A stretch of DNA of 64,000 nucleotides, taken from IMG/VR virus record IMGVR_UViG_3300017991_000074. The stretch is one strand, 5' to 3'. The stretch comes from an uncultured virus (IMG/VR IMGVR_UViG_3300017991_000074). Lineage: Duplodnaviria > Heunggongvirae > Uroviricota > Caudoviricetes. How positions within the stretch are numbered: the first letter of the stretch is position 1; every line of letters starts with the position of its first letter. Positions 12,854-62,913 of this stretch are shown here, piece by piece. The notes under the pieces were generated by a model. The model was not told the origin of the DNA. It did no database searches and saw only the letters and a program-made list of their open reading frames with translations. The translations under genes and the position numbers were made by a program.

Positions 12854-12882
12854 TAGACAAACTACCGAAATCTTACTATAAT
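12854..12882 (+). promoter_or_regulatory. strong sigma70-type promoter (probable early promoter)
   Basis: TAGACA-N17-TATAAT with an A-rich upstream tract. Confidence 0.85.
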
Positions 12883-13023
12883 GAAACCATGGACGGCAAC
12901 AAAAACCAGGAGGTAACCAAAATCACGAGGTCCTAAAAATCACTCGCAGACGATGCTCACTGACCATCGTTGGCCTGGGGGAAGGACCACCCCGAACAGC
13001 TCTCTGACAATCTAATCGTGCTA

Positions 13024-13352
13024 GATGGCATTCTCATCGTGCCTTCCTCCCGCGCAACGTATGGAGGACGCATGACCGAGAAAACCAACGAGGAATTGCG
13101 GCGACAAATTTTCGACGCAGTTTCCGAGCTAAGAGCTCGATATCGTGACGAAGATCGATACCCTCCCGATGGATTTCTTCGACACTATCACCGTCATGGT
13201 TGGTACATTTCCGAGTCAGGAATGAATCCTTCCAAGACGATGATGGGCGAGCGTGAAATCGCGGAATACGTCTACCTCGCATACCTCGAGCATTTCGAGG
13301 GAACCGTACCCGAGTAACTCTTCGTGGAGGAAGGTACGATGAGGATGCCATC
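13024..13352 (+). repeat. long-range inverted repeat 1 (arms 13024-13050 and 13326-13352) enclosing ORF 13072..13317
   Basis: 27 bp: 25 Watson-Crick and 2 G.U pairs. Confidence 0.95.
13072..13317 (+). CDS. hypothetical early protein (81 aa)
   Basis: GGAGG before ATG 13072; MTEKTNEELRRQIFDAV... Confidence 0.7.
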   Translation: MTEKTNEELRRQIFDAVSELRARYRDEDRYPPDGFLRHYHRHGWYISESGMNPSKTMMGEREIAEYVYLAYLEHFEGTVPE

Positions 13353-57385: not shown

Positions 57386-57781
57386 ATGGAGCAGATCACG
57401 GGTCTCATCTTTTCATGGCAATTTCTGATGTTCGGTGTGGTTACTGCGCTGATCATCGTGATGTTCATGAAGCTCGGTGGTTTGATGTGGCGGGCGAAGA
57501 AGCTGCGGGGAGTGGTTCGCTTCTTCGATGCGCTCAAGCCGTGGGTGCCCTGGGCACTCGGTGGTGGGCTTGGAGCGATCCCTCTGTGGCCTCGGCCTGA
57601 GGCTGTCCTCGAGCTTCCCGAGCAGTACCAGTACTTCACAATGATCATTCTCGGGATTGTCGCGGGGGCGTTCTACGAGAGGATCTGGAAGGGCGTCCGC
57701 CAGGTCATCGAGGCTCGAGGGATCGACTTGGACCTCGACCTCACTCCGAAGGAGCAGAAGAAAAAGAAGAACGGGGGGTAA
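57386..57781 (+). CDS. putative holin
   Basis: 131 aa, about three hydrophobic segments, basic C-terminus. Confidence 0.6.
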   Translation: MEQITGLIFSWQFLMFGVVTALIIVMFMKLGGLMWRAKKLRGVVRFFDALKPWVPWALGGGLGAIPLWPRPEAVLELPEQYQYFTMIILGIVAGAFYERIWKGVRQVIEARGIDLDLDLTPKEQKKKKNGG

Positions 57782-57835
57782 GGATGTCATGGGAACCGTG
57801 GAAGAAGGGGTCTCCGGTTCCGCCAAGGAGGGGCC

Positions 57836-58183
57836 ATGAGAGTGTTGAAGGCGATCGGCCGCTGGATGAAGAGCCATGTCTGGGAGACGATCGCGGCCTT
57901 CGGTGCGGGACTGGCGGTGATACTAGGAGCGGCGTTTCTTCTCCAGCGCAGAGCGACACAGAGAGCACGCGACGAAGGGCGTATCTCCATGGTCAAAGGC
58001 ATGGTGAAAGAGCTCCAGTCGAGGAGCCGGGCTCTTGAGGAGTTGGATGAGCAGGATGAAGAAGTTGTCGAGGAGATTGAGCATGAACGTGAAGTGCTCA
58101 AGGACGAGATCGAATCTGCCAGAGATACTGCTGGGCTCACGGACGAAGAAGCCCTCGAAGCGTTCTCACGCCTTGGGTTTTGA
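57836..58183 (+). CDS. membrane-anchored coiled-coil protein (spanin-like)
   Basis: N-terminal TM segment then coiled coil, after the holin. Confidence 0.5.
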   Translation: MRVLKAIGRWMKSHVWETIAAFGAGLAVILGAAFLLQRRATQRARDEGRISMVKGMVKELQSRSRALEELDEQDEEVVEEIEHEREVLKDEIESARDTAGLTDEEALEAFSRLGF

Positions 58184-58694
58184 CACCGCGATTCCGGTTC
58201 TAGGGCTTTTCTTGGGAGCTTTGCTGGCCACCTGTTCAGCCTGGGGTGAGCAAGATGATGGCGAATCCGTACACGGGGCCGTCGACGATGGGGAACGGGA
58301 ACGTTCAGTGGGTGAGGATCGTTCTCTACGGCGAGCGGTCGTGGAACACCGAGGACAGAGTGGTTTCTGGTTCCGCCGTGATGTTGCCCTCGAGATGCTC
58401 GCGGACCTGCAAGAGCTTCCCCTCCAGCGACGAATGGTCTCACTCATGGAAAGAGAGCTCTCCATACGAGGCCGGCAGGTTGAACGCTTGCGGGAGATGG
58501 TCTCACTTGAGAGGACGGCAGTGGATAGGGCGCTCGAAGGGCTCCAGGCGGCCGCGAGACGGGCTTCCGAAGCCGAGGCGTCCAGAGACGCCTGGTGGAG
58601 ACATCCGGCCTTCTGGGTAGGGCTGGGGGTGGTTTTCACGGTGGTTCTGGAGGTGGCAGCCGTCGCGGTTCTTGCCTACGTATCGCCGGACTAA
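58180..58694 (+). CDS. signal-bearing coiled-coil protein with C-terminal TM segment (spanin-like; start uncertain)
   Basis: VLGLFLGALLATC...coiled coil...WWRHPAFWVGLGVV; start coordinate is approximate. Confidence 0.45.
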
Positions 58695-59470: not shown

Positions 59471-60346
59471 ATGGCTAGTGAGCCTCTCCAGGTCCAGCTC
59501 AAGGAAGCAGAGGAATGTCTGGCTCGAGACCGACAGGTTATCGCTGAGTTGATCAACACCATCGTCAAGTACGTTCCGCGAAAGCATTGGCCGCGGTTTG
59601 TTTTGGAGTACTACGGCGCCATCCTGGATAACCTGCTTGGCGGACCTCAAATGAAGTCGGAAAAGGAGAAGCCGCTAGGTGAGGGTGTGGAAAAAGGGGA
59701 AGCTGAGGTTCCATCTGTGAAGAAAACTTCATCGAGAAAGATGCGGATTGACTGGAGCAAGCAACCGCTGGGGAAGGTGCCGGACACCGATATTGCTCGG
59801 AAGCTCGAGATATCGAGTGTGACGGTAGGGAGGGAGCGCAATAAGAGAGGGATTCTTGCGTTCCGCCCCGGGCCAGGGCAGCGAAGATGTGGGAGACGGG
59901 CGGGCATCAATTGGGACAATCAGCCTCTCCTTGGGAAGGTGCCCGATTCAGAGCTGGCCAAGGAGCTCGGTGTGCATGCCGCAACGGTGCGGGGAGCTCG
60001 AGTGCTTCGAGAGAAACGCGCAGCCGAAGCAGAGGCGCAGGAGAAGGCTGAGCTTGCAGCCCCTCCGCCGGCGATAGAAGAGGCTCCTCCAGAACCACCC
60101 AAGCCTCAGCCTCCTCCCGCTCCACGGCCGAAGCCGAAGCCTCGGCCAGCTCCTGGTCGCCATCGTCATCGCTGTCCGGTTTGTCGTGAGGAGGTGATCT
60201 GCATGGGGTCGTCATGCGAACCGAAGCTCGAGACAGATCAGGAGGAGCTGATGTCGTATCGGACCTGCGAGGCTTGCATCAAGGAGCTGAGCAAGGAGTC
60301 GTCGGGGAAGATGATTCATGTGTCAGGGAAGTTCGAGGCTCGATAG
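59471..60346 (+). CDS. DNA-binding protein with two HTH-like repeats, Pro-rich linker and Zn-finger-like end
   Basis: IDWSKQPLGKVPDTDIARKL and INWDNQPLLGKVPDSELAKEL; CPVC...CEAC. Confidence 0.7.
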   Translation: MASEPLQVQLKEAEECLARDRQVIAELINTIVKYVPRKHWPRFVLEYYGAILDNLLGGPQMKSEKEKPLGEGVEKGEAEVPSVKKTSSRKMRIDWSKQPLGKVPDTDIARKLEISSVTVGRERNKRGILAFRPGPGQRRCGRRAGINWDNQPLLGKVPDSELAKELGVHAATVRGARVLREKRAAEAEAQEKAELAAPPPAIEEAPPEPPKPQPPPAPRPKPKPRPAPGRHRHRCPVCREEVICMGSSCEPKLETDQEELMSYRTCEACIKELSKESSGKMIHVSGKFEAR

Positions 60347-60381: not shown

Positions 60382-60509
60382 TTTACAAACTCATATGCTT
60401 CCAATACCCTAATCTCAACCTTCACCCCTCCCACTGTAGGAGAGGTAGGCCAGTTCAAGTTTTTGCCGCTTGGACAACGGTTGACAGGACGACAAGAATG
60501 CGAAAGAAT
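60382..60509 (+). promoter_or_regulatory. two tandem putative promoters of the replication operon
   Basis: TTTACA-N17-TACCCT (60382-60410) and TTGACA-N17-AAGAAT (60481-60509). Confidence 0.55.
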
Positions 60510-60513
60510 CATA

Positions 60514-60630
60514 GTTACCTCCAGGTACGAGAAAGCCTCGTTGGGGTGATCGCGGTTCCCGCCAGAAAGCATTCTTGTCTCCGCGAATCCACCGGCAAAC
60601 CAACGGGGTTTTCTTGTGCCTGGAGGTAGT
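60514..60630 (+). promoter_or_regulatory. 31 bp leader stem occluding the initiator Shine-Dalgarno
   Basis: arms 60514-60544 and 60600-60630: 25 Watson-Crick and 6 G.U pairs, no mismatch. Confidence 0.9.
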
Positions 60631-60632
60631 CC

Positions 60633-61640
60633 ATGACCTCGCAGCAGTGCGTCCAGCTCCTCTCCTCGATTCTCCAAGAGCCGCAGATCGCGGCCCCCGA
60701 CAAGGTTCTCCTCTCCTTCATCGCCACTGAGCAGGCTGAGGGACGGACGGTTATCCATCGGGCCCTTGCTGACCTGGTCGACATCACGGCAACCAGCGTG
60801 GCACGTCGCTTGAGGAAGCTGCGAGAGCGGGGGTTTGTCGAGTGCGAGCGGGTGGGGAAGCATGCGTGGGAGTATCTCTTTGTGGGGTTTGATGTCCCCG
60901 CTTCCTCTGAGGAAATGGTTCCCTTTGTTGGGGACCCCATGACCCTCCACCCTGAGGGAAGTGGAGGGTCTCAAGTGGAGGAGAATCCTGCCCCTCCACC
61001 CCCTGTAAATGTATATGATCTATTTACTGGGGAGAGAATACTCTTGCGTAAAGCTACGCTTGCGGATGGCGGTAGCCCTGCAGGCTCTCCCCTAGCACCG
61101 ACACAGGAGGATGATGTGGCAGTGGTGACAGGACCGGACAGCCGGCTCAAGGAGATTCTTGAGCAGAAGGTGGCGAACGTGGGGAACAAGAAGCGGGTCT
61201 CACCGAAGAAGGATCGGTTCAAGGTCAGGGGAGGACCGACGAATCGGTGGGAGCGTTTCAAGGCGAAGAAGCCTTCCGAGTACAAGGTCCCTGACATGGA
61301 GATGCTGTACAAACAGACCTGGGAGAAAGAACAACTCTCGGGTCGCCCTTTTTCTTGGACGGGCAAGGATCAGGGTCAGGTGAAGCGCATGATCGTGGAC
61401 CAGGGGGCCGAGGCAGTCGCGAAGCTGATCGTGTATGTCTTGTCGAATTGGGACAAGATCAAACGGCGCTACCGATTGACGGGGACGCCGAGCCCGGCTG
61501 TGATCTATGGCTACAGACGGTCGTGGATGCCGGAGGCAATTGATGGGCCTCCGAAAGAGGTGTTGCGGGGGCCAGCCGAGTGGACGGGGGATGCGGACGA
61601 GGATGACGAGCTCGACGAGACGGGCTGGGGAGGTATCTGA
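60633..61640 (+). CDS. putative replication initiator (N-terminal winged HTH)
   Basis: ALADLVDITATSVARRLRKLRERGFVE; upstream of a DnaC-like gene. Confidence 0.7.
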   Translation: MTSQQCVQLLSSILQEPQIAAPDKVLLSFIATEQAEGRTVIHRALADLVDITATSVARRLRKLRERGFVECERVGKHAWEYLFVGFDVPASSEEMVPFVGDPMTLHPEGSGGSQVEENPAPPPPVNVYDLFTGERILLRKATLADGGSPAGSPLAPTQEDDVAVVTGPDSRLKEILEQKVANVGNKKRVSPKKDRFKVRGGPTNRWERFKAKKPSEYKVPDMEMLYKQTWEKEQLSGRPFSWTGKDQGQVKRMIVDQGAEAVAKLIVYVLSNWDKIKRRYRLTGTPSPAVIYGYRRSWMPEAIDGPPKEVLRGPAEWTGDADEDDELDETGWGGI

Positions 61641-61989: not shown

Positions 61990-62320
61990 GGCACAGAGGG
62001 CCATGCTCGAGGTGATTGCCCGTGGGGCGAACAAGGGGAAGACGGAGCGGTGCATTGAGTTGGCAGCGGAACATGACGCCTACATCGTGTGCCCTATGCG
62101 TGTGGATGCGTTGAGAATCGTCCGGATGGCGGAGGCCATGGGGCTGAACATTCGATTTCCGCTTACGGTGTATGAGTTCTGGAGTGGGCAATACTGCGGA
62201 AAGAACATTCGAGGATTCATCTTCGATGACGTCGATCGGATCTTGGCCGCGGTGTCAAAGACGGTTCCGATTCTCGGTGTGTCAATAACTCTGGAGGAGC
62301 CAGGGTGCCTATCGAGCTGA
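61982..62320 (+). CDS. small degenerate P-loop-like protein
   Basis: RGANKGKT ... FIFDDVD. Confidence 0.55.
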   Translation: MARAQRAMLEVIARGANKGKTERCIELAAEHDAYIVCPMRVDALRIVRMAEAMGLNIRFPLTVYEFWSGQYCGKNIRGFIFDDVDRILAAVSKTVPILGVSITLEEPGCLSS

Positions 62321-62913
62321 CGCGGGAGCATCTGACCTACCTCAACATCGGACGACGATACTGGACGGCCGAGCTATCCCAGGCCTCCGAGCAACAGAAA
62401 GAAGCTCTTCGCGGCTACGTCATCAGATTCAAGAAGGCGATCCGGGCAGGCGTTGGGCTGTACCTGTTCGGCTCCAACGGTTCGGGCAAGACGTTCCTCT
62501 CCTCAGCTCTCCTCAAGGAGGCGTGGAGGCGCTGGGGGATAGCGGGCTACTGTGTCACCGCTGCGGAGCTCAAGGCGGCGTTTGCTCGACCCACGGAGGC
62601 TCACGCTGGCTCTGAGGAGTTGATGGTGGAGAGGGCTGAGGCAAGTCGACTCTTTGTCATCGATGATTTGGGGAAGGAGTATCGGGCCACGAGCGGCTTT
62701 GCTGAGGTGTCTTTTGGTGCGCTTCTTCGGCATCGGAGTCGGGAGGAGCTCGCCACGATCATCACGACGAATATGGGGCCGAAGGAGTTTGCTGAGGTCT
62801 ACGGTGCGTCGACAGCGAAACTGCTCAAGGAGTGCATGCTTCCAGTGAAACTGGGAGGGCGAGATCATCGAGACGATGCTGCGGATGAACTGCGGCGACT
62901 GATAAAGGAGTGA
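62305..62913 (+). CDS. DnaC/IstB-like AAA+ helicase loader
   Basis: GSNGSGKT, VIDDLGKE, TIITTN, GRDHR. Confidence 0.88.
   Translation: MPIELTREHLTYLNIGRRYWTAELSQASEQQKEALRGYVIRFKKAIRAGVGLYLFGSNGSGKTFLSSALLKEAWRRWGIAGYCVTAAELKAAFARPTEAHAGSEELMVERAEASRLFVIDDLGKEYRATSGFAEVSFGALLRHRSREELATIITTNMGPKEFAEVYGASTAKLLKECMLPVKLGGRDHRDDAADELRRLIKE

Follow-up and report, generated by a model that had tools for sequence, protein, structure and literature searches.

The window analysed here is a stretch of 64,000 nt from an uncultured virus of the class Caudoviricetes (IMG/VR record IMGVR_UViG_3300017991_000074). It belongs to a contractile-tailed phage of ~100 kb with all genes on one strand, and its relatives measure 97–113 kb, two of them with terminal repeats. 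The subject of this study is the leader of a putative replication initiator gene in this window, which lies between a predicted promoter, P2, and the initiator start codon and folds into a long RNA hairpin. The initiator gene contains a candidate origin and is followed by a gene for a DnaC-like helicase loader (Table 1). Based on sequence comparison, the leader was identified as a conserved + strand cis-regulatory RNA of a lambda-O-like initiator that is absent from Rfam, and the role of this RNA is very probably to limit initiator expression. The RNA motif is new, and the kind of regulation is one already known.

Table 1. Positions of the features of the initiator locus in the window (SD, Shine-Dalgarno sequence; ORF, open reading frame)
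Feature	Position	Strand	Details
Promoter-like element P1, TTTACA-17-TACCCT	60382..60410	+	Scan prediction; weak -10
Promoter P2, TTGACA-17-AAGAAT	60481..60509	+	Predicted; 10/12 consensus positions
Candidate upstream ORF, 43 codons	60498..60629	+	ATG 60498, TAG 60627-29; runs through both hairpin arms
5' arm of the 31-bp stem	60514..60544	+	Anti-SD CCTCC 60518-22; 5' strand of basal helix 60532-44
Apical domain	60545..60593	+	GGTG/CACC and TCGCGG/CCGCGA stems; small apical hairpin
3'-side internal loop, 6 nt, GGCAAA	60594..60599	+	Directly above the basal helix
3' arm	60600..60630	+	3' strand of basal helix 60600-12; U-tract TTTTCTTGTG 60609-18; SD GGAGG 60622-26
Putative replication initiator, 335 amino acids	60633..61640	+	Winged helix 1-85; linker about 90-165; helical C-domain about 205-305
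Candidate origin in the initiator gene	60941..61050		CCCTCCAC iterons 60943 (+), 60961 (-), 60992 (+); AT-rich 61001-61050
DnaC-like helicase loader	62305..62913	+	phrog_50 (2.4e-26); IstB_IS21 (4.2e-7)

The leader hairpin and the initiator gene

An exhaustive helix search, in which G.U pairs and spans up to 260 were allowed, revealed 31 uninterrupted pairs (25 Watson-Crick and 6 G.U) between 60514-60544 and 60600-60630 on the + strand. In the 64-kb window, the same search gave as runner-up an uninterrupted stem of 17 pairs on the + strand and one of 16 on the - strand; in 10 mononucleotide shuffles of the 64 kb, the longest stems had 15–18 pairs. All six non-Watson-Crick pairs of the stem are G.U on the + strand. 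The + strand of 60505-60650 folded at -74.3 kcal/mol with a z-score of -8.2, which was matched by none of 200 shuffles, and the - strand of the leader region folded at -62.0 kcal/mol. When the + strand, which is G-rich, was ranked by the raw minimum free energy of 150-nt segments, the leader came just 7th; the anomaly of the leader is its unbroken helix, not its folding energy. The hairpin was identical in contigs from four DNA runs, and natural variants among them were therefore uninformative.

An earlier note on this DNA had described a mismatch-free 31-bp stem of this composition, extended by an inner stem GGTG..TCGCGG/CCGCGA..CACC. Both were found again, the former in the sequence and by the helix search, and the latter in the minimum-free-energy fold, where GGTG (60545-48) is paired with CACC (60590-93) and TCGCGG (60550-55) with CCGCGA (60581-86). 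The note had also placed the SD inside the 3' arm, with the arm ending 2 nt before the initiator ATG at 60633. This was confirmed for GGAGG at 60622-26, and the 6 nt ahead of the ATG were found to lie in or beside the arm. Its central statement, that a long duplex of the + strand RNA locks the ribosome-binding site of the initiator, was supported by these data. As P2 ends 5 nt ahead of the first paired base, a transcription start at or within ~3 nt of the first base of the stem is plausible, and so is the further claim that the 5' arm begins at the predicted start of the TTGACA promoter. A variant that overlaps P2, TGGACA-17-AAGAAT, starts at 60471 and matches the consensus at 9 of 12 positions.

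The initiator ORF showed weak matches to winged-helix families, and a DnaD_N match was obtained for 8 of the 51 initiator homologues scanned. In the AlphaFold model (predicted local distance difference test score, pLDDT, 80.5), the winged helix of residues 1-85 and the helical C-domain were modelled confidently and the linker with low confidence. A fold search aligned the N-domain with the N-terminal domain of DnaD (Z 9.1 and 8.4), which was one of many winged helices that tied; the search placed the N-terminal winged helix only, and no named family was found for the C-domain. In five distant homologues (L059–L063), a DnaD_N-like N-terminus is joined to the same C-domain as that of the initiator.

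Of the four copies of CCCTCCAC in the 64 kb, three fall within the initiator gene (60943-60999), with a 10-bp inverted pair among them, and the stretch past these iterons (GC 0.375) is the most AT-rich of the gene. The repeats are both direct and inverted, and repeat motifs of their own were present in the same linker-coding part of the related loci L002 (2591-2818) and L004 (2737-2900), followed in L004 by an AT-rich run; all three initiator genes examined thus carried intragenic repeats. From the sequence, the repeats and the AT-rich stretch likely represent a lambda-type origin inside the initiator gene. The layout resembles that of lambda O and ori-lambda, in that the DNA-binding domain is N-terminal, the iterons and an AT-rich stretch stand in mid-gene and a loader gene adjoins downstream; the order of initiator and loader was kept in the loci L056 and L057. 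Unlike in lambda, the loader here is DnaC/IstB-like, not lambda P, and no match to the O sequence was obtained, since Pfam and PHROGs gave no O-family match and tblastn against 50,697 phage records gave nothing. With the structural model taken together with this layout, ORF 60633-61640 is plausibly a lambda-O-like initiator. The earlier assignment of the gene as a replication initiator is credible, given the winged helix, the intragenic iterons with the AT-rich stretch and the DnaC-like neighbour.

Conservation of the leader RNA

Among 1.84 billion representatives, 162 initiator homologues were found at E<=1e-3, and 11 homologous loci with upstream DNA were compared. L003 and L005, which are cut at the gene start, were left out, and L001 was identical to the window. 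The hairpin was carried by five loci, namely the window, L002, L004, L053 and L057. The five carriers have in common a promoter, an upper stem that differs between loci, an internal loop, a 13-bp basal helix, a U-tract, an SD and the start codon. The upper stems are of unrelated sequence, and the apical domain, although not conserved as sequence, always forms an extended helix; the internal loop, of 6 nt on the 3' side, did not differ in size or position between the five folds. The basal helix, which is GC-rich, was paired in 62 of 62 cells, with compensatory changes in 5 of its 13 pairs. This covariation was reached by 0 of 500 shuffles, and slid controls were 27–63% paired.

Past the helix, a U-tract with 6–7 U within 8 nt was kept in all five carriers, and L004, L053 and L057 retain it although it has no pairing partner there. 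The 3' strand (GGGG-YTTTCTTKTG) was nearly invariant, while the proteins are just 30–48% identical. As it is conserved in the three loci in which the U-tract lacks a partner, this strand has some further function besides serving as half of a helix. In L002, the initiator of which is 48% identical to that of the window, the leader folded at -84 kcal/mol (z -8.4). A covariance model of the element gave a single strong + strand copy in the window and in each of the carrier genomes G002 and G004, and each copy was located at the initiator leader. The opposite strand of that site also scored, but far lower, and in the hairpin-less G003 just a match at E=0.22 was obtained elsewhere.

The Rfam covariance search gave no leader match at E<=10 for the window or at E<=5 for L002, L004, L053 and L057. 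Searches of the 50,697 phage records by blastn and tblastn gave no match, and record G001 (8.4 kb) had none to the leader region. Initial scans of viral_contigs, for which the protein, alignments A3 and A6 or a strict RNA pattern served as the query, were also negative. Alignments A2 and A11 were set aside as too diverse. L054, a match to the RNA pattern, was dropped as a chance match because no homologous gene lies downstream of it.

The promoter is part of the conserved arrangement. A -35/-10 pair with 16–17 nt spacing occupies the place equivalent to P2 in L002, L004, L053 and L057, and the distance from the end of the sigma70-like promoter to the first stem was 5–8 nt in all five carriers. 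In L004 and L053 it is a small 5' hairpin that comes first, and the -10 is separated from the main helix by ~20–25 nt. The order that the earlier note had seen in the window, a promoter directly followed by the hairpin, was therefore found again in four relatives. P1, further upstream, aligns with TTGACG-17-TACCTT of L002 (2237-2265) and TTTACA-17-TATCCT of L004 (2254-2282). Elements of the P1 type (TTKACR-17-TAYYMT), ~100 nt upstream of P2, were also seen in L057 (732-760) and in L056 (~1419-1450), a locus without the hairpin; their -10 versions are TACCCT, TACCTT, TATCCT, TATTAT and TATTCT. An iteron-like operator near P1 was considered and rejected, as the resemblance was imperfect and a search allowing one mismatch revealed no excess.

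The + strand folded better than the - strand in all five carriers, by 5.7–17 kcal/mol, and the carriers have 20 G.U pairs in total. This asymmetry bears on two alternatives which we regard, even taken together, as extremely unlikely: that the leader is a DNA element (a cruciform or a single-strand hairpin for the origin), or that it is a pT181-type attenuator controlled by an antisense RNA. The leader lies ~330 nt upstream of the candidate origin iterons, and the - strand also folds (-62 kcal/mol), as could be expected of a DNA element. However, the non-Watson-Crick pairs are + strand G.U throughout the five carriers and become A.C mismatches on the - strand, and the U-tract and the SD are conserved as sequence. 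For the pT181-type attenuator, the rod-like fold shows no other pairing that could act as an antiterminator, and no antisense gene of the kind that characterizes countertranscript-type leaders (pT181, R1 CopA) was found opposite the leader. A conserved - strand promoter was likewise not found; the window has a weak one (8/12), L002 has none, and L004 has one of 8/12 elsewhere.

Below the basal helix, the stem extends in the window and L002 only, that is, in two of the five carriers. In this extension the partner of the U-tract is an A-rich segment and that of CCUGGAGG is CCUCCAGG; the extended stem is paired at 31 of 31 positions in the window and at 27 of 28 in L002. The unpaired probability of the initiator ribosome-binding site was 0.19 in the window and 0.17 in L002, as against 0.43–0.45 in L004, L053 and L057. 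The minimum-free-energy folds of these three loci leave the SD unmasked. Their basal helices are of 9–13 bp with variable upper stems, and a short anti-SD-like sequence stands beside the basal helix (CUUCC, CGAGA and CUCC, respectively). The lock on the initiator described in the earlier note is thus real in the window (31 bp) and in L002, but it is not a property of the family; present in two of five carriers, it is a lineage-specific elaboration of an older element. The loci form a natural variant series, with the terminator-like hairpin alone, the hairpin together with a full mask, or neither.

These accessibilities are relevant to a simpler possibility, a constitutive throttle without an opener, in which the 5' hairpin would stabilize the mRNA, the terminator would leak and the masked site would set a very low level of translation. 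It is the simplest reading for L004, L053 and L057, where the accessibility of the SD is near ordinary, and it agrees with the position of the hairpin, which begins at or near the predicted +1 in all five carriers. However, the length and the perfection of the window stem are far beyond the needs of masking. With 31 perfect pairs the stem would hardly ever open spontaneously, and initiator production in the window phage would be close to nil. Such a throttle is considered decidedly unlikely.

Attenuation, masking and release

The earlier note had missed that the conserved part of the leader has the anatomy of a terminator, namely a GC-rich basal helix and a U-tract. In each of the five carriers the basal helix ends in GGGG and the U-rich tract follows directly. 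The 3' motif GGGGYTTTCTTKTGYCTGGAG was found at 47 loci among 185,579 bacterial and archaeal genomes, mostly as the 3' half of short GC-stem terminators; these loci are mostly ordinary terminators, not relatives of the leader, and they were used solely to show the usual context of the motif. A GC helix with a U-tract between a promoter and the gene that it serves is the arrangement of an attenuator, and from this anatomy we lean towards the view that the conserved core acts as a terminator or attenuator. In phage lambda, the strong promoter PR' is followed about 100–200 nt later by the terminator tR', with the 6S RNA in between, and the operon behind it is off unless Q modifies the polymerase. 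The leader is similar to PR'-tR' in that a promoter and then a terminator-like element stand ahead of an operon; unlike in lambda, no Q-like protein was recognized here and the operon is the replication module. A Q-like antiterminator encoded upstream was considered and rejected, with neither a family match nor a conserved position.

In the explanation that we propose, P2 would fire, and the transcript would fold at once into the rod-like hairpin, in which the basal helix (60532-44/60600-12) is followed by UUUUCUUGUG. Given the terminator-like anatomy, most transcripts are predicted to end near 60610-60618. In the window phage and its closest relative, 18 pairs are added below the basal helix, and in read-through transcripts the U-tract, the SD and the standby region would be locked in the 31-bp perfect duplex. 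The outcome would be a two-level, default-off throttle on initiator synthesis, which would also limit transcription into the origin, located inside the initiator gene. Release in the window phage might then come from cleavage of the perfect duplex by the host RNase III, which is taken as the likeliest opener. As a whole, the default-off attenuator with a ribosome-binding-site mask and release by RNase III is our best explanation, and it is held at somewhat less than even confidence.

RNase III needs roughly two helical turns of duplex. The leader offers regular double-stranded RNA above a length of about 20 bp, with 31 pairs in the window and 27 of 28 in L002. The lambda N leader and the T7 early RNAs are further systems for comparison. 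For E. coli adhE and lambda cIII, it is established that RNase III unmasks an occluded ribosome-binding site (PMC5371410); a long duplex of the 5' leader contains or abuts the SD there, as it does here. Unlike in those two systems, the stem of the present leader is unusually long and perfect, starts from the predicted +1 and embeds a terminator-like helix and a U-tract; moreover, the long duplex occurs in just two of the five relatives and the cleavage is a prediction. By analogy, RNase III may be the opener of the hairpin, a possibility that we hold to be plausible rather than probable.

The earlier note had also suggested that the same double-stranded RNA logic operates in the early region of the phage, and a second mismatch-free duplex between an SD and an anti-SD was indeed present in the window. 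On the + strand, 13024-13050 pairs with 13326-13352 through 27 pairs (25 Watson-Crick and 2 G.U), and the 275-nt loop between the arms encloses a small ORF (13072-13317). CCTTCCTCC is located in the 5' arm, and GGAGGAAGG and the ATG at 13339 are located in the 3' arm. The duplex, which masks the next SD, appears in the minimum-free-energy fold (z -7.8). A promoter close to consensus, TAGACA-17-TATAAT (12854-12882), precedes it by ~140 nt. The segment 12525-13070 is a 550-nt A-rich non-coding region with an AT skew of 0.21. A strong SD-like sequence, AGGAGGT, is located at 12907-12913, just past the predicted start of that promoter, with no start codon at normal spacing.

Several points weigh against the proposed explanation. 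The hairpin is absent from L056, which belongs to the same protein clade, and from the five distant DnaD_N-type homologues L059–L063. With 65–117 nt, an apical domain and a 6-nt internal loop, it is no compact terminator, and the leader site was not called by a consensus terminator scan, which elsewhere in the window gave sites at about the number expected by chance. Since the hairpin is far longer than ordinary terminators, termination is an extrapolation from anatomy. The long duplex is not kept among the relatives at large, and with the mask in two of five carriers RNase III cannot be the logic of the whole family; an RNase III gene was not found in three related phage genomes. After cleavage, an intermolecular duplex of roughly 12–14 bp would still cover the SD, so that RNase III could instead inactivate the mRNA or cause its decay. 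Finally, if the P2 transcripts are both terminated and masked, the source of sufficient initiator is hard to see.

A second possible opener had not been considered in the earlier note. The open frame from ATG 60498 to TAG 60627 offers an alternative in which ribosomes do the unmasking. On transcripts from P1 or from the upstream operon, ribosomes on the 43-codon ORF would melt both arms; if they followed close behind the RNA polymerase, they would also stop the terminator from forming; and after termination inside the SD region they would re-initiate at AUG 60633. The TAG of the ORF ends 3 nt ahead of the initiator ATG. Its own ATG is upstream of the predicted P2 transcription start, so the P2 transcripts would lack this start codon and be silent.

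When the relatives were compared, one frame was open across the whole leader in all five hairpin loci, its stop falling between -6 and +11 relative to the initiator start, and an ATG was present at -135 to -140 in four of them. In the AT-richer L053 and L057, this through-running frame is the sole open one. Shuffles gave an open-through frame at 0.23, 0.40, 0.19, 0.29 and 0.08, and at 0.015–0.063 when an ATG was required. In relation to the conserved RNA, the frame in the window is not that of L002/L004, which suggests that the act of translation would matter and not the peptide, and the hairpin-less L056 has no such ORF. In L059–L063 a real small upstream gene overlaps the initiator start (-4 to +11), and coupling may thus be a habit of the family. 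This small gene is conserved in the five loci with 72–87 codons, and its stop overlaps the initiator start, in two of them as ATGA. The upstream ORF of the hairpin loci was rejected as a real protein gene, because neither the peptides nor the frames are conserved.

Coupling of this kind has known counterparts. Leader-peptide coupling controls plasmid replication in R1 (tap/repA), ColIb-P9 (repY/repZ), IncB and IncL/M. As in tap/repA and repY/repZ, the SD of the phage initiator lies hidden in a stem, and a short upstream ORF, whose stop adjoins the initiator start, could serve to open this stem. Unlike in the plasmid leaders, no antisense RNA gene or pseudoknot partner was found and there is no sequence similarity; the element occurs in a lytic-type phage of ~100 kb, whereas R1 and ColIb-P9 are plasmids. 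In the pyrBI attenuator, the terminator lies inside a 135-bp leader-peptide gene (PMC4824070). The phage leaders are similar in that a frame of 43–49 codons surrounds a terminator-like hairpin and stops where the structural gene starts. They are unlike pyrBI in that the hairpin is far larger, the upstream ORF starts ahead of the conserved proximal promoter and the ORF is a predicted one. No nucleotide-sensing pause sites as in pyrBI were identified at the leader.

The evidence for ribosome-driven unmasking is, however, offset by several observations. The test of the upstream ORF was post hoc and its significance modest. The conserved arms are free of stops in all three frames, so an open frame comes cheaply in the three GC-richer loci, where two of the three frames are open across the hairpin. 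The upstream ATG lies in or just upstream of P2, and in L057 its TG doubles as an extended -10. The SD of the upstream ORF varies from weak to good across the carriers and is weak in the window (AGGA); L053 has no ATG, and the start is carried by the P1 and upstream transcripts only. A duplex of about -70 kcal/mol would be a poor design for the transit of ribosomes, and the strongly conserved P2 would be left without a role. The geometry of the second duplex (13024/13326) is such that ribosome transit cannot open it. Opening by ribosomes is regarded as a serious rival, although as rather unlikely, and RNase III is favoured over it.

The fold of the terminated transcript bears on one further reading. 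If P2 transcripts end at the U-tract, the product of about 100 nt could be a stable small RNA that represses the initiator in trans and in a dosage-dependent manner, with an unpaired anti-SD seed in its 5' 12–14 nt that pairs with the initiator ribosome-binding site. In the fold of 60516-60616, the first 12 nt form just a 4-bp mini-hairpin, which is followed by a stable hairpin and a U-tail. Trans-acting small RNAs that stem from attenuators are known, among them rnTrpL (PMC7968998). However, this reading requires termination, which is itself predicted, and its target is already masked in cis. In addition, the predicted P2 transcript of L057 lacks the anti-SD and the 5' tails of L004 and L053 are weakly complementary, and we consider the reading very unlikely. 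No other exact target for the anti-SD seed was found in the window. If true, the small RNA would repress by genome copy number, as a sense-strand equivalent of the antisense RNAs that control plasmid copy number, and the same sequence would also mask the read-through mRNA in cis.

Neighbouring genes and significance

Upstream of the initiator locus, the gene at 59471-60346 encodes two tandem helix-turn-helix-like repeats (DNA 59768-59807 and 59930-59969) and a C-terminal CxxC...CxxC. This zinc-ribbon/helix-turn-helix gene has no family match and is absent from that position in L053, L056 and L057; in L002 the upstream gene likewise ends in a CxxC motif. A hairpin that is specific to the - strand was seen inside this ORF at 60029-60128, in a Pro/Ala-rich stretch, with -80.4 kcal/mol on the - strand against -57.8 kcal/mol on the + strand (60001-60150). 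It showed weak, sub-threshold matches to microRNAs of Rfam and could be compositional. A lysis-like cassette (57386-58694; 161-1294 in L053) encodes transmembrane holin-like and spanin-like proteins with a WW(K/R)HPA(L/F)WV motif, and in the window phage and L053 it stands directly ahead of the replication module.

The leader adds no new principle, because attenuators, masked ribosome-binding sites and RNase III sites are of textbook kinds. What is known of RNA-level control of phage replication initiators comes mainly from plasmids and from a small number of model phages. What is gained is a structurally defined, conserved leader RNA outside Rfam and a lambda-O-like initiator family with a likely intragenic origin. 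The question that the leader raises is what gates the synthesis of the initiator, and the natural variant series makes this question testable by reporters.

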